Source: Minisyncoccota bacterium
Lineage (GTDB): Bacteria; Patescibacteriota; Minisyncoccia; Phycocordibacterales; UBA9973
Reading direction: 5' to 3'
Assembly: GCA_041664285.1 (NCBI GenBank)
Contig: JBAYLA010000004.1
Span: 3,171 to 67,170 of the forward strand
DNA: 64,000 nucleotides
Shown here piece by piece: positions 4,812 through 58,587 of this stretch; positions within the stretch are counted from its first letter, which is position 1; every line of letters starts with the position of its first letter. A program made the position numbers and the translations under genes. A model generated the notes under the pieces. It was given only the letters and a program-made list of their open reading frames with translations. It was not told where the DNA came from and ran no database searches.

Positions 4812-5396
4812 TTAATTTACAAAATCAACTTTCGGTGCTGTTTGATTCTCGGTTGGAACATTAAAGTATGCTTTTTCAGTAAAACCAAAAATGCTTGCGA
4901 CTGCTGAAGTTGGAAAAGTTTTAATATTTGTATCAAATATACGAACTAAATCATTATATTTCTGTCTTTCTACGGTAATGCGATTTTCAGTTCCTTCAAG
5001 CGAAACTATAAGGTCACGATAGGCTTGAGAAGATTGAAGAACAGGATAATTTTCAGCAATTACTAAAAGACGGCCAAGAGCAGACTCTACTTGGGTTGCT
5101 GCTTGTGCTTTCTCGTCAGGGGTGGTAGCGCCAGAATATCGTGTTCGAGCATCAGCAATAGCTCCAAAAACGTCTTGCTCTTGCTTGGCTACTCCTTTAA
5201 CTGTATTTACAATATTAGGGATGAGGTCAAAACGTCTTTGATATTGATTTTCTACTTGAGCCCATTGCGCGGTTATTTGCTCACTTTGAGTAACAAAACC
5301 ATTATATTTAGAAACTCCCCAAAAAATAAATAATAAAACAATTACCAAAACAATAATCCACTTCATGTTCTTTTTAAAGAAATTTTCTTCTTGCAT
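4812..5396 (-). CDS. lemA: LemA family protein
   Basis: N-terminal TM then WAQVENQYQRRFDLIPNIVNTVKGVAKQE....LLVIAENYPVLQSSQAYRDLIVSLEGTENRITVERQKYN, a canonical LemA pattern. Confidence 0.8.
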   Translation of the reverse strand: MQEENFFKKNMKWIIVLVIVLLFIFWGVSKYNGFVTQSEQITAQWAQVENQYQRRFDLIPNIVNTVKGVAKQEQDVFGAIADARTRYSGATTPDEKAQAATQVESALGRLLVIAENYPVLQSSQAYRDLIVSLEGTENRITVERQKYNDLVRIFDTNIKTFPTSAVASIFGFTEKAYFNVPTENQTAPKVDFVN

Positions 5397-5449
5397 ATTA
5401 TTGGTTTAAAGTTATTCGAATAATAAATTATTATAGCACATATTGTATT

Positions 5450-5674
5450 TCAACACACCACTAAAAGCTTGCTCGGATGTCTATGTCCATTTACAATACG
5501 AACCCTTGTAACAGGGACTTTAAAATACTCTGCCACTAATTTTAAGACCCGAGTATTCGCTTCATTTCTTTGCGCTTTTTCTTTAACTGAAACTTCAAAA
5601 GAATCTTCACTTTTTTTTACGAAAGATTCTTTTTTTACCCCCGCAGAAACTTTAACGTGAATATAATTAGCCAA
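5450..5674 (-). CDS. DUF167/YggU family protein
   Basis: 74 aa. VKVSAGVKKESF...FEVSVKEKAQRNEANTRVLKLVAEYFKVPVTRVRIVNGHRHPSKLL matches the YggU (UPF0235) pattern. Confidence 0.6.
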   Translation of the reverse strand: MANYIHVKVSAGVKKESFVKKSEDSFEVSVKEKAQRNEANTRVLKLVAEYFKVPVTRVRIVNGHRHPSKLLVVC

Positions 5675-8874: not shown

Positions 8875-11800
8875 CTAAACAACTATATTGATAAGTCTAT
8901 TTTTAACATAAAATACTTTTTTTACTTCCCTGTCTGCTAGTTGCTTCAAAACAACTTCATTGGAAATTACCTGCTTTTTGATATCTTCCTCGCTGTCATC
9001 TATTTTTATCATAATTTCAGTTCTAACTTTACCATTTACCTGCACTACAATTTTTATTTCCTCATCTTTAATTTTTGAAAGATCAGGCATTGGCCATGGC
9101 TCTAAATTAATTGATTTCTGATGACCTAATATTTGCCAGAGTTCCTCCACGATATGAGGCGCAAACGGTGAAAGAATTTTTAGAAATTTTTCGTAAGCAA
9201 TCTGTGAGATAGATTCAAGCTTCCCGACCTCGTTAATAAAAATCATCAAAGTAGAAATAGCTGTATTAAATTTCATTTCTTCTATATCAGAGCTCACTTT
9301 CTTTATTGCCTTCTCAATTTCAAACTCAACGTATTTTTTATTTTTTTGTACTTTAGATTGAAGATTCCAAATACGTTCTAAAAATCTTCTAGGACCAATG
9401 ATAGCTTCTTCGCTCCAGGCAACCGACTGACTAAAAGGCCCCATGAACATTTCATAAAGACGTAGGGTGTCTGCACCGTATGTTTTTACTATATCGTCTG
9501 GATTAATCACATTTCCCAAGCTTTTAGACATTTTTGCACCTCCCTCACCCAAGATCATTCCGTGGGAAGTACGCTTTTGATATGGTTCAGATGTTGGCAC
9601 AAGCTTTAAATCAAAAAGAAATTTATGCCAAAAACGAGAATACAAAAGATGTAAGGTGGTGTGTTCCATTCCACCATTATACCAATCGACTGGTGTCCAA
9701 TATTTTAAATTTTTCTTTGAGGCAAATTCTTTTTTATTTTTTGAATCAACGTAACGCAAGAAATACCAAGAACTTCCTGCCCAATTTGGCATGGTATCTG
9801 TTTCTCTACGCCCTTTACCTTTACATTTTGGACATTTTACATTGACCCACTTGGAAATATTTGCGAGTGGTGATTCTCCACTATTGGTTGGCTGATAGTT
9901 TTTTACTTTTGGAAGCTCTACCGGCAAATCTTTTTCTGATACTGGCATCCAACCAGTTTCTATTATGGTATTTAAAATCTCTGGCTCTGGACCATTATTT
10001 TGGAAATGAGGAGCAATAGGTTTTTCATATAATATATCTGCGTTCATTATTTCAGCCATTTTTTGTAACTGCCATTCAGGTACAACAGAAAAATCCTTGT
10101 CGGCTAAAATTATTCTTTCCTTGGTTTTTGATATGATTTTTTTAAAATTAAATTTCCAATCAAAACTTCTTTCTACGTCTGGACGTGCTTGGTCTGTAAA
10201 TTCTGGTTTTATAAATCCGTCTACCAGTACTAATTTGGCAATTACAGATTTGGTTTTTTCCGCTAATTTCATTGCTACCACAGCACCTAAACTTACTCCC
10301 ATAATAATCGTATTTTCAGTTAAAACAGTATTTTTTAGTATAAATTCTACTTGCTCTACAACATTTGGCTTGAGAGGATTTGGTAGAAGTGGTGCATAAA
10401 CTTTATGACCCTGTTTTTCTAATTCCATTTTTAACCATGGAATAAAAAGGTCTTGCCTTTTATATCCATGTAATAAAATATAGTTATATTTTCTATTTTT
10501 ACAGCTTTCGCAATACACTACTGGAATCGGCTCACCCCAATAACGCTGACGAGAAAATACCCAATCACGAAGTTTGAAAGTTGTTTTCTCTTTTCCGCCA
10601 ATAAATTTTACAATCTCCTTGGTAGCTTCTTTGGAATCTAGTTTATTAAATTTTCCAGAATTAACCAAAATTCCATCTTGCGTAAAACACCTTGATTCTA
10701 AGCCTTGAAAAATTCTCCAAGCATGTTTTCCATTTGGAACATTGATAAATTCTTCAACCTCTTCTCTAGGAATCCAAAGTGTTTCGTGTTTATCTTTTTC
10801 CTCTTGAGAAATTTCTTTTCTTGCGTCACTACCTAACTCTAAATATACGGTGTGAAAACGTGTTTTTAAATTTATTTTTCTATTAGGGTGATAAAACTGT
10901 GCATACATAACATGGTCGATATCCTCTGCTTTTTTTATGTCAAAATACCCTGACTCTTCTTCGACTTCACGAATAGCTGAATCAATTATCTTTTCATTAT
11001 TTTCAATTCCCCCGGTAATAAAAATGTTCCAGGGAGCATTTTTCCATTTTAAGCAAAGATATTTATCTTCTTTCCAATGTTTTACAATAGCAAAGATTGC
11101 CTCTTTGTCTTTTGTTGGTAACTCCGGCCTGAAAGCATCAACACCAGTCTGAGCATATTCTATAGGTTCAATCACTTTTCTAATCGACAAATTAAATTTC
11201 TTCGCGAATTCAAAATCCCTTTCGTCGTGTGCTGGCACGGCCATTATTGCTCCAGTACCATAACTAGCAAGCACATAATCAGCTATCCAAATTGGAATTT
11301 CCTCTTGTGTTGCAGGGTTAATAACCTTAATCCCCTTCAATTCCACGCCTGTTTTTATTTTATCTTCGGTTGTTCTTTCTATGTCAGTTTTACTTTTTAC
11401 TTCTTTTATATATTTTTCAACTTCACTCCAATTTTTAATTTGAGATTTTAATTTTTGGACTAATTCATGGTCTGGCGCAAGAATAACATACGTCGCCCCA
11501 AAAATAGTATCTGGACGAGTAGTGAAAACTTTTATTTTTTCATTGTTGTTTTTTATTTCAAAATCTATTTCCGCTCCCTCGCTCCTGCCTATCCAGTTCC
11601 TCTGCCCAAGTTTAATTTGCGAAAGATAATCTACGGTGTCCAAATCTTTATCAAGCCTATCGGCATATTTGGTAATTGCGAGCATCCATTGTTCTTTTTC
11701 TCTTTTCTCTGTATCTCCACCACAACGCTCACATTTATCATTTACCACCTCTTCATTGGCTAAACCTATTTTACAAGAAAGACACCAATTGATGTAGGAT

Positions 11801-12258
11801 TTTGCTTTATATGCCAAACCTTTTTTCAACAATTGTAAAAATATCCACTGGGTCCATTTGTAATATTTTGGATCAGTAGTATTAATTTCTCGTGACCAAT
11901 CAAAAGAAAAACCAATAGATTTAAGCTGCCGTCTAAAGGTGTCTGTGTTATCCTTGGTAACCTTTATCGGATGAATTCCCGTCTTAATAGCATAATTCTC
12001 TGTCGGCAAACCAAAAGCATCCCAGCCTATCGGGTAAAGTACGTTGTATCCTTCCATCCTGCGTTTACGAGAAATGATGTCCATGGCCGTATTGCTACGG
12101 ATGTGACCCACGTGCATGCCTGCGCCAGATGGATATGGAAACTCAATCAAACCATAAAATTTAGGTTTTTTAGAAAAATTCTTAGCTTCATATACTCCAG
12201 TTTTTTCCCACTCTTTCTGCCATTTTTTTTCAATTTTTTTATGATCATATTCCTTCAT
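8875..12258 (-). CDS. leuS: Leucyl-tRNA synthetase carrying two inserted enzymatic domains
   Basis: Present: the HIGH region (PYPSGAGMHVGH), a zinc knuckle, the CP1 editing domain, KMSKS (GAKMSKSLGNV) and a C-terminal anticodon-binding domain. Total 1127 aa versus about 800-860 aa for typical LeuS. The excess is two in-frame inserted domains listed separately below. Confidence 0.9.
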   Translation of the reverse strand: MKEYDHKKIEKKWQKEWEKTGVYEAKNFSKKPKFYGLIEFPYPSGAGMHVGHIRSNTAMDIISRKRRMEGYNVLYPIGWDAFGLPTENYAIKTGIHPIKVTKDNTDTFRRQLKSIGFSFDWSREINTTDPKYYKWTQWIFLQLLKKGLAYKAKSYINWCLSCKIGLANEEVVNDKCERCGGDTEKREKEQWMLAITKYADRLDKDLDTVDYLSQIKLGQRNWIGRSEGAEIDFEIKNNNEKIKVFTTRPDTIFGATYVILAPDHELVQKLKSQIKNWSEVEKYIKEVKSKTDIERTTEDKIKTGVELKGIKVINPATQEEIPIWIADYVLASYGTGAIMAVPAHDERDFEFAKKFNLSIRKVIEPIEYAQTGVDAFRPELPTKDKEAIFAIVKHWKEDKYLCLKWKNAPWNIFITGGIENNEKIIDSAIREVEEESGYFDIKKAEDIDHVMYAQFYHPNRKINLKTRFHTVYLELGSDARKEISQEEKDKHETLWIPREEVEEFINVPNGKHAWRIFQGLESRCFTQDGILVNSGKFNKLDSKEATKEIVKFIGGKEKTTFKLRDWVFSRQRYWGEPIPVVYCESCKNRKYNYILLHGYKRQDLFIPWLKMELEKQGHKVYAPLLPNPLKPNVVEQVEFILKNTVLTENTIIMGVSLGAVVAMKLAEKTKSVIAKLVLVDGFIKPEFTDQARPDVERSFDWKFNFKKIISKTKERIILADKDFSVVPEWQLQKMAEIMNADILYEKPIAPHFQNNGPEPEILNTIIETGWMPVSEKDLPVELPKVKNYQPTNSGESPLANISKWVNVKCPKCKGKGRRETDTMPNWAGSSWYFLRYVDSKNKKEFASKKNLKYWTPVDWYNGGMEHTTLHLLYSRFWHKFLFDLKLVPTSEPYQKRTSHGMILGEGGAKMSKSLGNVINPDDIVKTYGADTLRLYEMFMGPFSQSVAWSEEAIIGPRRFLERIWNLQSKVQKNKKYVEFEIEKAIKKVSSDIEEMKFNTAISTLMIFINEVGKLESISQIAYEKFLKILSPFAPHIVEELWQILGHQKSINLEPWPMPDLSKIKDEEIKIVVQVNGKVRTEIMIKIDDSEEDIKKQVISNEVVLKQLADREVKKVFYVKNRLINIVV
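9949..10497 (-). other. YdeN/RBBP9-like alpha/beta serine hydrolase domain inserted in LeuS, about residues 588-770
   Basis: YILLHGYKRQDLFIPWLKMELEKQGHKVYAPLLP....TIIMGVSLGAVVAM (GxSxG nucleophile)....LVDGF....ADKDFSVVPE....PHF. It sits between RYWGEPIPVVYCESC and the conserved EKDLPVELP segment. A canonical LeuS has only a few residues here. Confidence 0.7.
10699..11145 (-). other. Nudix hydrolase domain inserted in LeuS, about residues 372-520
   Basis: Nudix box GGIENNEKIIDSAIREVEEESGY matches G-x5-E-x7-REUxEExGU. It sits between the end of the CP1 editing domain (VPAHDERDFEFAKKF) and the conserved LVNSG...KLRDW...RQRYWGEPIP segment. Confidence 0.75.
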
Positions 12259-35248: not shown

Positions 35249-35321
35249 GCCGCCTTAGCTCAGTTGGTAGAGCAACGCTTTTGTAAAGCGAAGGTCCTCA
35301 GTTCGAATCTGAGAGGCGGCT
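35249..35321 (+). tRNA. tRNA-Thr (anticodon UGU)
   Basis: Manual cloverleaf: acceptor GCCGCCU/AGGCGGC 7 bp; D-stem GCUC/GAGC; anticodon stem ACGCU/AGCGA with one 27-43 mismatch; loop UUUGUAA giving anticodon UGU; T-stem CUCAG/CUGAG; T-loop TTCGAAT; discriminator U. No encoded CCA. Confidence 0.8.
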
Positions 35322-35346
35322 CAAAGAATATCTTAAATTTTGGTAA

Positions 35347-57629: not shown

Positions 57630-58550
57630 TCATTTTTTTGAAATAATTTCAATTGCTTTACTAAATAAAGGTATTATATCGTTGTAAATACGAAGTTCCG
57701 GAATAGCCGAAAGTGGAAACCACCGAGCTGCATCTAGCCCACCAGACTTTTCTAAAACAAGTTCTTTATGCTCACTCTTCGCTAAAAAATAAACTACCTT
57801 CTTTAAACTTTTTCCAGAGAGAGGATGAGTGGCCACATATTCATTCTCCCCCAATTTTTCTTCTATTTCAATATCTAATCCAATTTCTTCTTTGATTTCT
57901 CTCACAGTCGCATCCTCCTCTTTTTCACCCTTTTCAATACTTCCCTTACTAATAGTCCAGTATCCAAAAACATCGTGAACTAAAGCAAACATAATTTTAC
58001 CGTCTTTTTTGTTGTCTTCCCTGGCATAAACAAGCGCTCCCCCCTTTTTATCAATTGGTAATTTAGAAATATCTACTACCTCTTCGTGTTTCTTTTTTTT
58101 ACTAATTTGCTCTTTGCATGGCTCACCTATTTCTTTGTAAACTGCCCCCAGAACACCATTAACAAATTTACTAGAATTTTCTCCACCAAAAGTTTTTGCT
58201 AATTCTATAGCCTCATTGATGGCCACCTTTGGAGGAACTTCTTTGCGATCACCGAAAAGAAGTTCGGCTAAGCCGATTCTTAAAATATTTCTATCAATAA
58301 TAGAAATTTTATCAATAGGCCAGTCTGGAGCGGCCTTTTCTATGATTTCATCAATTACTCGTTGTTTTTTAATAACTTGATTTAATAGTGAAAATACAAA
58401 AACATCATCCTCGCAACCAGGAGCAAATTCTTTTAAATTTCTTTTTAGGACATTCTCAATGCTGTCTTTACTAGCTTTAATTCCCTCTGAAAAATCCCAC
58501 TCAAAAAGCGTCTGAAGAACTATTGATCTGGAAAGGTGCCGATTTGCCAT
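57630..58550 (-). CDS. nusB: NusB-Nudix fusion protein: N-terminal NusB antitermination domain plus C-terminal Nudix hydrolase domain
   Basis: Residues about 1-145 NusB-like (SRSIVLQTLFEWDF....AINEAIELAKTFGGENSSKFVNGVLGAV). C-terminal domain carries the Nudix box GSIEKGEKEEDATVREIKEEIGL. Confidence 0.75.
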   Translation of the reverse strand: MANRHLSRSIVLQTLFEWDFSEGIKASKDSIENVLKRNLKEFAPGCEDDVFVFSLLNQVIKKQRVIDEIIEKAAPDWPIDKISIIDRNILRIGLAELLFGDRKEVPPKVAINEAIELAKTFGGENSSKFVNGVLGAVYKEIGEPCKEQISKKKKHEEVVDISKLPIDKKGGALVYAREDNKKDGKIMFALVHDVFGYWTISKGSIEKGEKEEDATVREIKEEIGLDIEIEEKLGENEYVATHPLSGKSLKKVVYFLAKSEHKELVLEKSGGLDAARWFPLSAIPELRIYNDIIPLFSKAIEIISKK

Positions 58551-58587
58551 AAATTAATGAACGAAATGAATATAATTTATGAGCATC

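Follow-up and report, generated by a model that had tools for sequence, protein, structure and literature searches.

A leucyl-tRNA synthetase (LeuRS) gene in a contig of a Minisyncoccota bacterium (JBAYLA010000004.1) encodes a protein of 1127 amino acids that carries two extra domains, one of the Nudix family and one of the YdeN/RBBP9 family of serine hydrolases. The gene, leuS, lies on the minus strand of the 64,000-nucleotide stretch that we analyzed (hereafter the window), and its segments are listed in Table 1. The protein is probably a housekeeping LeuRS that hosts exchangeable accessory enzymes, which are themselves predicted to be active. Two complete small enzymes are nested in frame in surface loops of the synthetase, one in the CP1 editing domain and the other in the second zinc knuckle. 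The polypeptide would then have three or four active sites: the synthetic site, the CP1 editing site, a Mg-dependent Nudix pyrophosphohydrolase and a Ser-His(-Asp) hydrolase. This number of sites is most likely, since each insert has its own fold and has kept its catalytic residues.

As the first-pass annotation of this DNA had stated, leuS is a single unbroken open reading frame (ORF) for one polypeptide. The whole protein scores 965.9 bits on TIGR00396 (leuS_bact), where the cut-off is 548.4, and its alignment to Thermus thermophilus LeuRS (PDB 1h3n, E-value 6e-200) splits into four blocks, which fix the insertion points. The canonical motifs that were said to flank the inserts were all found: both class I motifs (the HIGH motif as HVGH, and KMSKS), the two zinc knuckles with their CxxC pairs CLSC/CERC and CESC/CPKC, and a CP1 editing domain (PF13603, E-value 1.3e-67), whose threonine-rich TTRPDT (amino acids 246-251) and conserved Asp motif GTGAIMAVPAHD (334-345) align with T. 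thermophilus. In the second knuckle, C439/C442 and C484/C487 of T. thermophilus correspond to C583/C586 and C809/C812 of the query. The class Ia core, CP1, the two knuckles, and the anticodon-binding and C-terminal domains are thus common to the query and canonical bacterial LeuRS (T. thermophilus 1h3n/2byt, Escherichia coli 4aq7). The query differs from these in having 157 amino acids instead of 10 in a CP1 loop and 182 instead of none between the CxxC pairs of the second knuckle, in agreement with the earlier statement that canonical enzymes have short linkers at both positions, and in missing the leucine-specific domain. In place of that domain (T. thermophilus 580-635) the query has amino acids 904-908 (nucleotides 9535-9549), with 3 residues against about 56, and all 120 nearest homologues, with or without inserts, have the same replacement of the domain by 3 residues. 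Orthology with insert-free leuS genes in the same gene order lends indirect support to leucylation of tRNA-Leu as the predicted activity. The same protein is present in NCBI, JGI and ENA, and a record of it is titled 'MAG: class I tRNA ligase family protein [Candidatus Paceibacterota bacterium]' (MAG, metagenome-assembled genome). The GC content at third codon positions is 0.20 in the hydrolase insert, 0.24 in the Nudix insert and 0.28-0.32 in the LeuRS core segments.

The first insert (site gamma) stands in place of T. thermophilus residues 364-373. It had been described as a Nudix domain placed after the end of CP1; the domain and its perfect box were confirmed, but the insert lies inside CP1, as positions 1-145 of the 185 of PF13603 precede it and the isolated CP1 crystal constructs (chains 2ajg, 4k47 and 3pz5) run about 50 residues past the insertion point. 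On the Pfam NUDIX model (PF00293) the insert alone scores 39.7 bits (E-value 5.8e-10, gathering cut-off 21.1) and the whole protein 35.6 bits. The Nudix box, GGIENNEKIIDSAIREVEEESGY, matches GX5EX7REUXEEXGU throughout, with Tyr as the last U, and the predicted model of the insert (pLDDT confidence score 95) has the Nudix fold. Two tyrosines follow the box, at +14 and at +18, and the one at +18 belongs to a family-wide FYH motif. A strict box is kept in 86 of 114 site-gamma domains (75%), and most of the other 28 retain the glutamates of the ExxEE core; degenerate boxes occur in some Nudix copies, namely those at another site, beta. The insert resembles small Nudix hydrolases (2azw, 3i7u, 4mpo, and the stand-alone proteins P0275-P0311 of the candidate phyla radiation, CPR) in fold and box. 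It differs from the stand-alone CPR proteins in being nested in CP1 and in having a canonical box, and the motif KHW[SK]E[DN]K marks the LeuRS-embedded branch.

The second insert (site delta) falls between the adjacent residues C442 and G443 of T. thermophilus, right behind the first CxxC of the second knuckle. Compared with orthologues in which this site is empty, it comprises exactly 182 codons between Cys586 and Gly769, and no target-site duplications or repeats were visible at these codon-aligned junctions. In carriers of a delta-site insert, position -5 tends to be Tyr and +1/+2 to be Gly-Trp; the nearest orthologues with an empty site show His and Gly-Ile/Met there. These differences may reflect co-converted flanks or local adaptation. 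The proposal of a YdeN/RBBP9-like hydrolase with a GVSLG nucleophile elbow held up well. The insert matches Bacillus subtilis YdeN (1uxo) over 161 residues with an E-value of 5.1e-14 and human RBBP9 with 1.2e-5, and its predicted model (pLDDT 94.9) is closest to RBBP9/YdeN (E-value ~1e-12, template modelling (TM) score 0.80-0.83), the next alpha/beta hydrolases following at 2e-6 and a TM score of 0.64. Profile searches had been proposed as a check of both families. Nudix was recovered above its cut-off, but PF06821 gave only 13.3 bits on the insert, under its cut-off of 22, so that the family placement rests on the PDB matches and the fold; PF06821 is present in the precomputed annotation of related embedded copies.

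His597, Gly598, Ser656, Gly658 and His751 are invariant among 22 LeuRS-embedded hydrolases that are 24-50% identical, with His597-Gly598 as the oxyanion HG. Asp722 of the ADKD motif aligns with the first Asp of the DD motif of YdeN/RBBP9 and is the least certain assignment of the triad. The catalytic residues of the guest domains are under purifying selection. With YdeN (1uxo), RBBP9 (2qs9, 7oex) and PF06821 the insert has in common the minimal alpha/beta fold of ~180 amino acids, the HG, the xSxG and the His of a C-terminal HF; unlike them it is nested rather than free, and it has Val before the Ser where they have His. The closest relatives of the query hydrolase are other copies at site delta (47-50% identity), followed by those at site beta and, last, by free ones.

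The guest domains are dispensable and exchangeable. Five insert sets, one of them empty, were found among LeuRS cores that are 82-91% identical to the query: P0003 has a Vsr-like domain and Nudix (core 91%), P0002 has Nudix alone (core 89.7%), P0005 has a hydrolase at site beta together with Nudix, and P0029, P0027, P0010, P0016 and P0088 are insert-free. The gene order YchF, S-adenosylmethionine methyltransferase, DUF5671, leuS, MurJ, M10 peptidase is common to the query and these orthologues, which indicates that the insert-variant leuS genes are orthologues of one housekeeping gene. Since syntenic orthologues with such similar cores are without one or both inserts, the inserts are dispensable for LeuRS function and the guest modules are not needed for aminoacylation.

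Exchange is evident from comparison of the cassettes with their hosts. Core identity and Nudix identity are barely correlated (Spearman 0.12, 6441 pairs), and clustering of 121 Nudix domains at 50% identity, from LeuRS with a core identity of at least 60%, gives 29 groups. The Nudix domain of the query shares 37% identity with those of P0002 and P0003 but 52-54% with those of P0018, P0043 and P0044, even though the core identity to these three is only 69-72%. P0024 and P0054 are ~100% identical from end to end except in the Nudix domain, where identity is 36%. At the DNA level their leuS loci (L087 and L088, from two samples) are ~99.6% identical outside the Nudix cassette, with 8 mismatches in 2140 nucleotides upstream, the neighboring gene included. 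Identity falls sharply to 50-60% within the cassette, rises to 81-97% in a tail and then returns to 99-100%; the left breakpoint is abrupt, directly after AAATATAATTT, and the right end is graded. This pattern marks a recent recombinational replacement.

Insert architectures were surveyed in an E-INS-i alignment of the 120 best homologues, with sites given in query numbering. Inserts occur in at least five places of LeuRS: site alpha follows position 209; site beta follows 237, within the hairpin that precedes KVFTTRPDT; site gamma is 365-521; and sites delta and epsilon come after 586 and 812, respectively. Nudix at gamma alone accounts for 84 of the 120 homologues. Another 18 have a hydrolase at beta and Nudix at gamma (three of them also with a Vsr-like PF04480/PF18741 domain), seven have Nudix at both beta and gamma (two of them with a delta hydrolase in addition), one has a hydrolase at delta alone and five are insert-free. 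The query arrangement of Nudix at gamma and hydrolase at delta was seen in three, P0001, P0057 and P0120; the last two come from independent assemblies and are 55% identical to the query over 98-100% of the length, so that the same architecture does recur in related genomes, where the earlier annotation had proposed to look for it. The remaining two are one with a Ham1/ITPase domain (P0043, at site beta) and P0086, a protein of 1722 amino acids with two Nudix domains after amino acid 209, a hydrolase at beta, Nudix at gamma and, past the second CxxC, a domain of the HAD family. In P0003, P0004, P0009, P0022, P0069 and P0109, site beta has a nuclease domain of the Vsr-like/PD-(D/E)xK type in frame (PF04480 DUF559 together with PF18741), either alone or adjoining the hydrolase, and P0004 retains an IEVDGDIH-type motif. 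It is possible that this nuclease is a selfish element or a driver of cassette mobility.

Nudix within LeuRS is the majority state (110 of the 120 nearest homologues), and the norm in Parcubacteria/Paceibacteria. We also scanned one genome per species with the motif [VI]KHW[SK]E[DN]K, which covers the KHW-motif branch of Nudix only. The scan yielded 208 confirmed relatives, the best 80 loci of which were examined, and in 80 of these 80 the KHW-motif Nudix lies within a bacterial-type leuS, at site alpha, beta or gamma, at times in tandem or in two to three copies. These loci come from Nomura-, Kaiser-, Taylor-, Vogel-, Adler- and Zambryskibacteria, Berkelbacteria, CPR2 and some MAGs labelled as DPANN. 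A bacterial-type LeuRS with the same Nudix insert and a divergent C-terminal end was seen in MAGs labelled Woese-, Pace- or Nanoarchaeota (L010, L012, L020, L026, L028, L031, L042, L055, L057, L069 and L071). Either inter-domain transfer or mislabelled bins would account for these cases; in L028, a 985-kb contig, the neighboring genes (ArsR-type helix-turn-helix protein, ScpB, RNase HII) are compatible with either origin.

The guest families are found beyond LeuRS as well. A profile of the hydrolase inserts, run against 1.84 billion representatives, gave 6325 matches, 161 of them at an E-value of at most 1e-30, and the best 150 were classified. Half of these (75) are stand-alone proteins of less than 230, mostly ~175-200, amino acids and ~55 are LeuRS or LeuRS fragments, in which the module occupies two sites (beta and delta). 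In others of the 150 it is nested in AlaRS, Fmt, TsaD, Der/EngA, SecA or UvrA, or fused to adenylate kinase (Adk). One hydrolase-hosting SecA, at L085 (OZ246420.1, a 1.1-Mb record), is called as four consecutive ORFs of 79, 445, 126 and 535 amino acids, which reflects either sequencing frameshifts or a recoded stop codon in that lineage. Stand-alone relatives of the Nudix cassette have 156-194 amino acids, match the LeuRS-cassette profile with E-values of 1e-47 to 1e-58 (one of them in Colwellbacteria) and lie in ordinary gene neighborhoods. All 37 that were retrieved have a variant box, with Q for the first E and A/M for R. At L089 a stand-alone Nudix of the cassette family (5001-5480) lies 4 kb from a stand-alone PF06821 serine hydrolase (9145-9723), and the small genes lined up there include HIT, glyoxalase and GrpB. 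The window itself has a second fusion of a housekeeping protein with Nudix: a 306-amino-acid NusB-Nudix protein (57636-58553, minus strand) with PF01029 at amino acids 8-140 (E-value 2.9e-34), PF00293 at 196-288 (E-value 5.6e-15) and an intact Nudix box, GSIEKGEKEEDATVREIKEEIGL.

In the scenario that we favor, the guest domains would stem from families that are represented by stand-alone genes of ~160-190 amino acids as well. The cassettes would have been gained, lost and replaced, most simply through homologous recombination in the very conserved LeuRS flanks, and LeuRS would serve mainly as a tolerant, constitutively expressed carrier. We infer that both guest enzymes are active. The Nudix domain would clear a nucleoside-diphosphate-X by-product, for which a dinucleoside polyphosphate is the best, though weak, guess. 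For the hydrolase, the likely reaction would be cleavage of alpha-aminoacyl esters or amides that have a free amine, by analogy to its nearest characterized relative, RBBP9. That enzyme is acylated by Leu/Ile, Met, Phe, Tyr and Trp and requires a free alpha-amine (PMC8866121). RBBP9 also activates the valyl ester valacyclovir by hydrolysis (Shenoy 2020, as cited in PMC7730578).

Several points weigh against this scenario. Recombination through the conserved flanks is deduced from the breakpoints. As to the Nudix substrate, the top structural match of the model is an uncharacterized Enterococcus faecalis protein (2azw), the remaining matches are of mixed specificity, and no NCBIfam equivalog matched that would assign a substrate. 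The confinement of the KHW-motif Nudix to leuS in the 80 best loci, at three sites and in up to three copies, looks like more than passive carriage, and as this branch is restricted to LeuRS, a LeuRS-linked role of the Nudix domain is possible; the branch may be tied more closely to LeuRS than the promiscuous hydrolase is. A functional theme is possible for the hydrolase too, since many of its hosts (LeuRS, AlaRS, Fmt, TsaD, Adk) act in aminoacyl or adenylate chemistry.

A rival reading, which builds on the proposal of the first-pass annotation, is a dedicated quality control in cis: the Nudix domain would act on Ap4A/Ap3A (diadenosine tetra- and triphosphate) or a non-cognate adenylate from the synthetic site of LeuRS and the esterase on mischarged tRNA-Leu or released aminoacyl esters, and the two would add to the proofreading of a genome short of trans-editing factors. 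We hold this to be unlikely as a whole, even if it is partly supported, and hydrolysis of Ap4A or adenylate in cis and an extra deacylation by the guest domains are both possible. The restriction of the KHW-motif Nudix to leuS, at three sites around CP1 and at times duplicated, speaks for it, and so does the resemblance of the hydrophobic alpha-aminoacyl-X substrates of RBBP9-type hydrolysis (Leu/Ile/Met) to the editing substrates of LeuRS. The Ap4A hydrolases 3i7u and 4mpo are among the structural neighbors of the Nudix insert. Moreover, a loop Tyr downstream of the box is a mark of ApnA hydrolases (PMC5389931), and the +18 Tyr aligns with a Tyr of the Aquifex aeolicus Ap4A hydrolase, in a weak match (E-value 0.096). 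On the other hand, syntenic orthologues do without Nudix, hydrolase or both, and the CP1 motifs are intact, so that canonical editing is already present. Nudix cassettes only 36% identical are swapped in identical LeuRS backbones, which argues against co-adapted interfaces, and the hydrolase module, which is equally found in SecA, UvrA and Der and is often stand-alone, is too promiscuous for a LeuRS-specific proofreading role. An aminoacyl-adenylate is not known to be a typical Nudix substrate, and an acyl-phosphate adenylate is no nucleoside-diphosphate-X.

The carrier scenario can also be extended. Essential proteins of Patescibacteria, LeuRS above all, might be landing pads for a shared pool of catalytically active guest cassettes (Nudix, YdeN-like hydrolase, ITPase, HAD, Vsr-like nuclease) that recombine between orthologous genes and are kept diverse by selection, as a tethered detoxification or immunity against nucleotide or aminoacyl-nucleotide poisons of the host protein. 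Core genes would then carry and exchange accessory genes within themselves, in a manner not recognized before. We offer this broad version as a speculation with low odds of being right. Its narrower relative, in which the guest enzymes are conflict or immunity modules proper, is less probable still: they would detoxify nucleotide-like or aminoacyl-nucleotide inhibitors that target synthetases and further essential proteins that use ATP, or would protect against attack by phage or host, and diversifying selection would have produced the many divergent, swappable cassettes. The 29 Nudix clusters in similar LeuRS, the very recent replacement between near-identical strains and the variable presence in close relatives would fit, and some serine hydrolases, such as MccF, are known to cleave aminoacyl-nucleotide antibiotics. 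Yet such mosaicism can arise neutrally by recombination anchored in conserved flanks, the catalytic residues of the guest domains are conserved, and a toxin or inhibitor context was not seen nearby. A search of the PADLOC defense models gave no meaningful match, the best being PDC-S07 with an E-value of 0.0031 for Nudix and nothing for the hydrolase.

It is also improbable, to a slightly greater degree, that the inserts are tolerated passenger DNA, selfish or neutral, or a structural decoration that compensates, for instance, for the missing leucine-specific domain. Their polymorphic presence among orthologues, their lower third-position GC content, the nuclease domains at site beta and the degenerate boxes of some site-beta Nudix copies would all be expected of passengers. 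Against this, Ser, His and the oxyanion HG are retained in all 22 embedded hydrolases despite their divergence, the query has a perfect Nudix box and three quarters of the site-gamma copies have a strict one, and neither guest of the query is a nuclease able to drive its own spread. Compensation is hard to reconcile with the absence of the leucine-specific domain from all 120 homologues, whether or not they have inserts. That the architecture is an artefact or a removable element (a chimeric assembly, a missed frameshift or an intein-like spliced element) is hardly credible: the contig is a metagenome assembly and some relatives in databases are fragments beginning with the hydrolase, but the frame is continuous, the protein is identical in three repositories, the architecture recurs in independent assemblies and the insertion points are codon-exact. 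Inteins and introns were considered and rejected, as insert 2 starts with Lys and ends with Thr followed by Gly, insert 1 starts with Pro, neither has intein boundary residues, and both folds are those of complete enzymes, an alpha/beta hydrolase and a Nudix hydrolase, rather than Hint.

A description of this LeuRS architecture was not found in a full-text literature search. Its earlier designation as undescribed agrees with this result, but Nudix in LeuRS is a clade-wide majority state that can be seen in precomputed Pfam annotation, so that the architecture has gone unreported but not unseen. In a 2026 survey, 48,551 domain insertion events did not include any with PF13603, the LeuRS editing domain, as the host (PMC13114784), and synthetases are unmentioned in a 2017 review of the Nudix clan (PMC5389931). 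The nearest precedents are IleRS with a GNAT domain (NCBIfam NF040702) and CP1 itself, the classic nested domain, where a synthetase is likewise combined with another enzymatic domain or a domain is nested in a surface loop of the Rossmann-fold core. The query differs from them in that its guests are unrelated hydrolases of the housecleaning type, optional in orthologues and exchanged as cassettes, and in that CP1 is here the host. Inteins and homing-endonuclease insertions are similar in being in frame, polymorphic in presence and situated in an essential gene, and some orthologues have a Vsr-like nuclease at beta. In contrast to them, the query inserts are without Hint fold or splice-junction residues, are metabolic hydrolases that are presumably retained in the mature protein and lie in variable loops, not in the conserved motifs of the active site.

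Synthetases with accessory domains are already known; the exchangeable-cassette behavior is the most unexpected part. Aminoacyl-tRNA synthetases are usually viewed as conserved enzymes whose added domains are stable and have a functional link; in this large bacterial radiation, LeuRS has one to four extra catalytic domains, and even near-identical strains differ in them. Should the guest enzymes act on aminoacylation by-products, they would represent a new translational quality control in organisms with minimal genomes; if not, core genes would be carriers for exchangeable accessory enzymes. In the latter case the use of LeuRS as a phylogenetic marker would be affected, because mosaic cassettes mislead trees, and so would annotation, the NCBI name being only 'class I tRNA ligase family protein'. 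YdeN/RBBP9 is an orphan family with few known substrates, and its natural fusions offer a basis for guesses at its bacterial function. For protein engineering, LeuRS offers ready permissive insertion sites.

Table 1. Segments and motifs of leuS, in nucleotide positions of the window (aa, amino acids)
Feature	Position	Strand	Evidence
Coding sequence of leuS (bacterial-type LeuRS), 1127 codons and a stop codon	8875..12258	-	ORF, TIGR00396, 1h3n
Catalytic core, N-terminal part, aa 1-219	11602..12258	-	HVGH 49-52 (nucleotides 12103-12114), CLSC 159-162, CERC 176-179
CP1 editing domain, first part, aa 220-364	11167..11601	-	PF13603 positions 1-145 of 185; threonine-rich TTRPDT, GTGAIMAVPAHD
Insert 1, Nudix hydrolase domain, aa 365-521, CP1 loop, site gamma	10696..11166	-	
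Nudix box GGIENNEKIIDSAIREVEEESGY, aa 416-438	10945..11013	-	all consensus positions filled
End of CP1 and return to catalytic core, aa 522-586, up to CESC 583-586	10501..10695	-	aligns with T. thermophilus 374-442
Insert 2 at site delta, serine hydrolase domain of the YdeN/RBBP9 family, aa 587-768	9955..10500	-	1uxo match, fold, empty-site orthologues
GVSLG nucleophile elbow, aa 654-658, Ser656	10285..10299	-	invariance in 22 LeuRS-embedded homologues
ADKD, aa 719-722, candidate catalytic acid	10093..10104	-	
APHF, aa 749-752, catalytic His751	10003..10014	-	invariant
LeuRS C-terminal part, aa 769-1127	8878..9954	-	CPKC 809-812, KMSKS 909-913 (nucleotides 9520-9534), anticodon-binding and C-terminal domains

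Outside leuS, the window has a single tRNA gene, for tRNA-Thr with anticodon TGT (35249-35322). The GC content is 30-38% across the whole window (1-64000).

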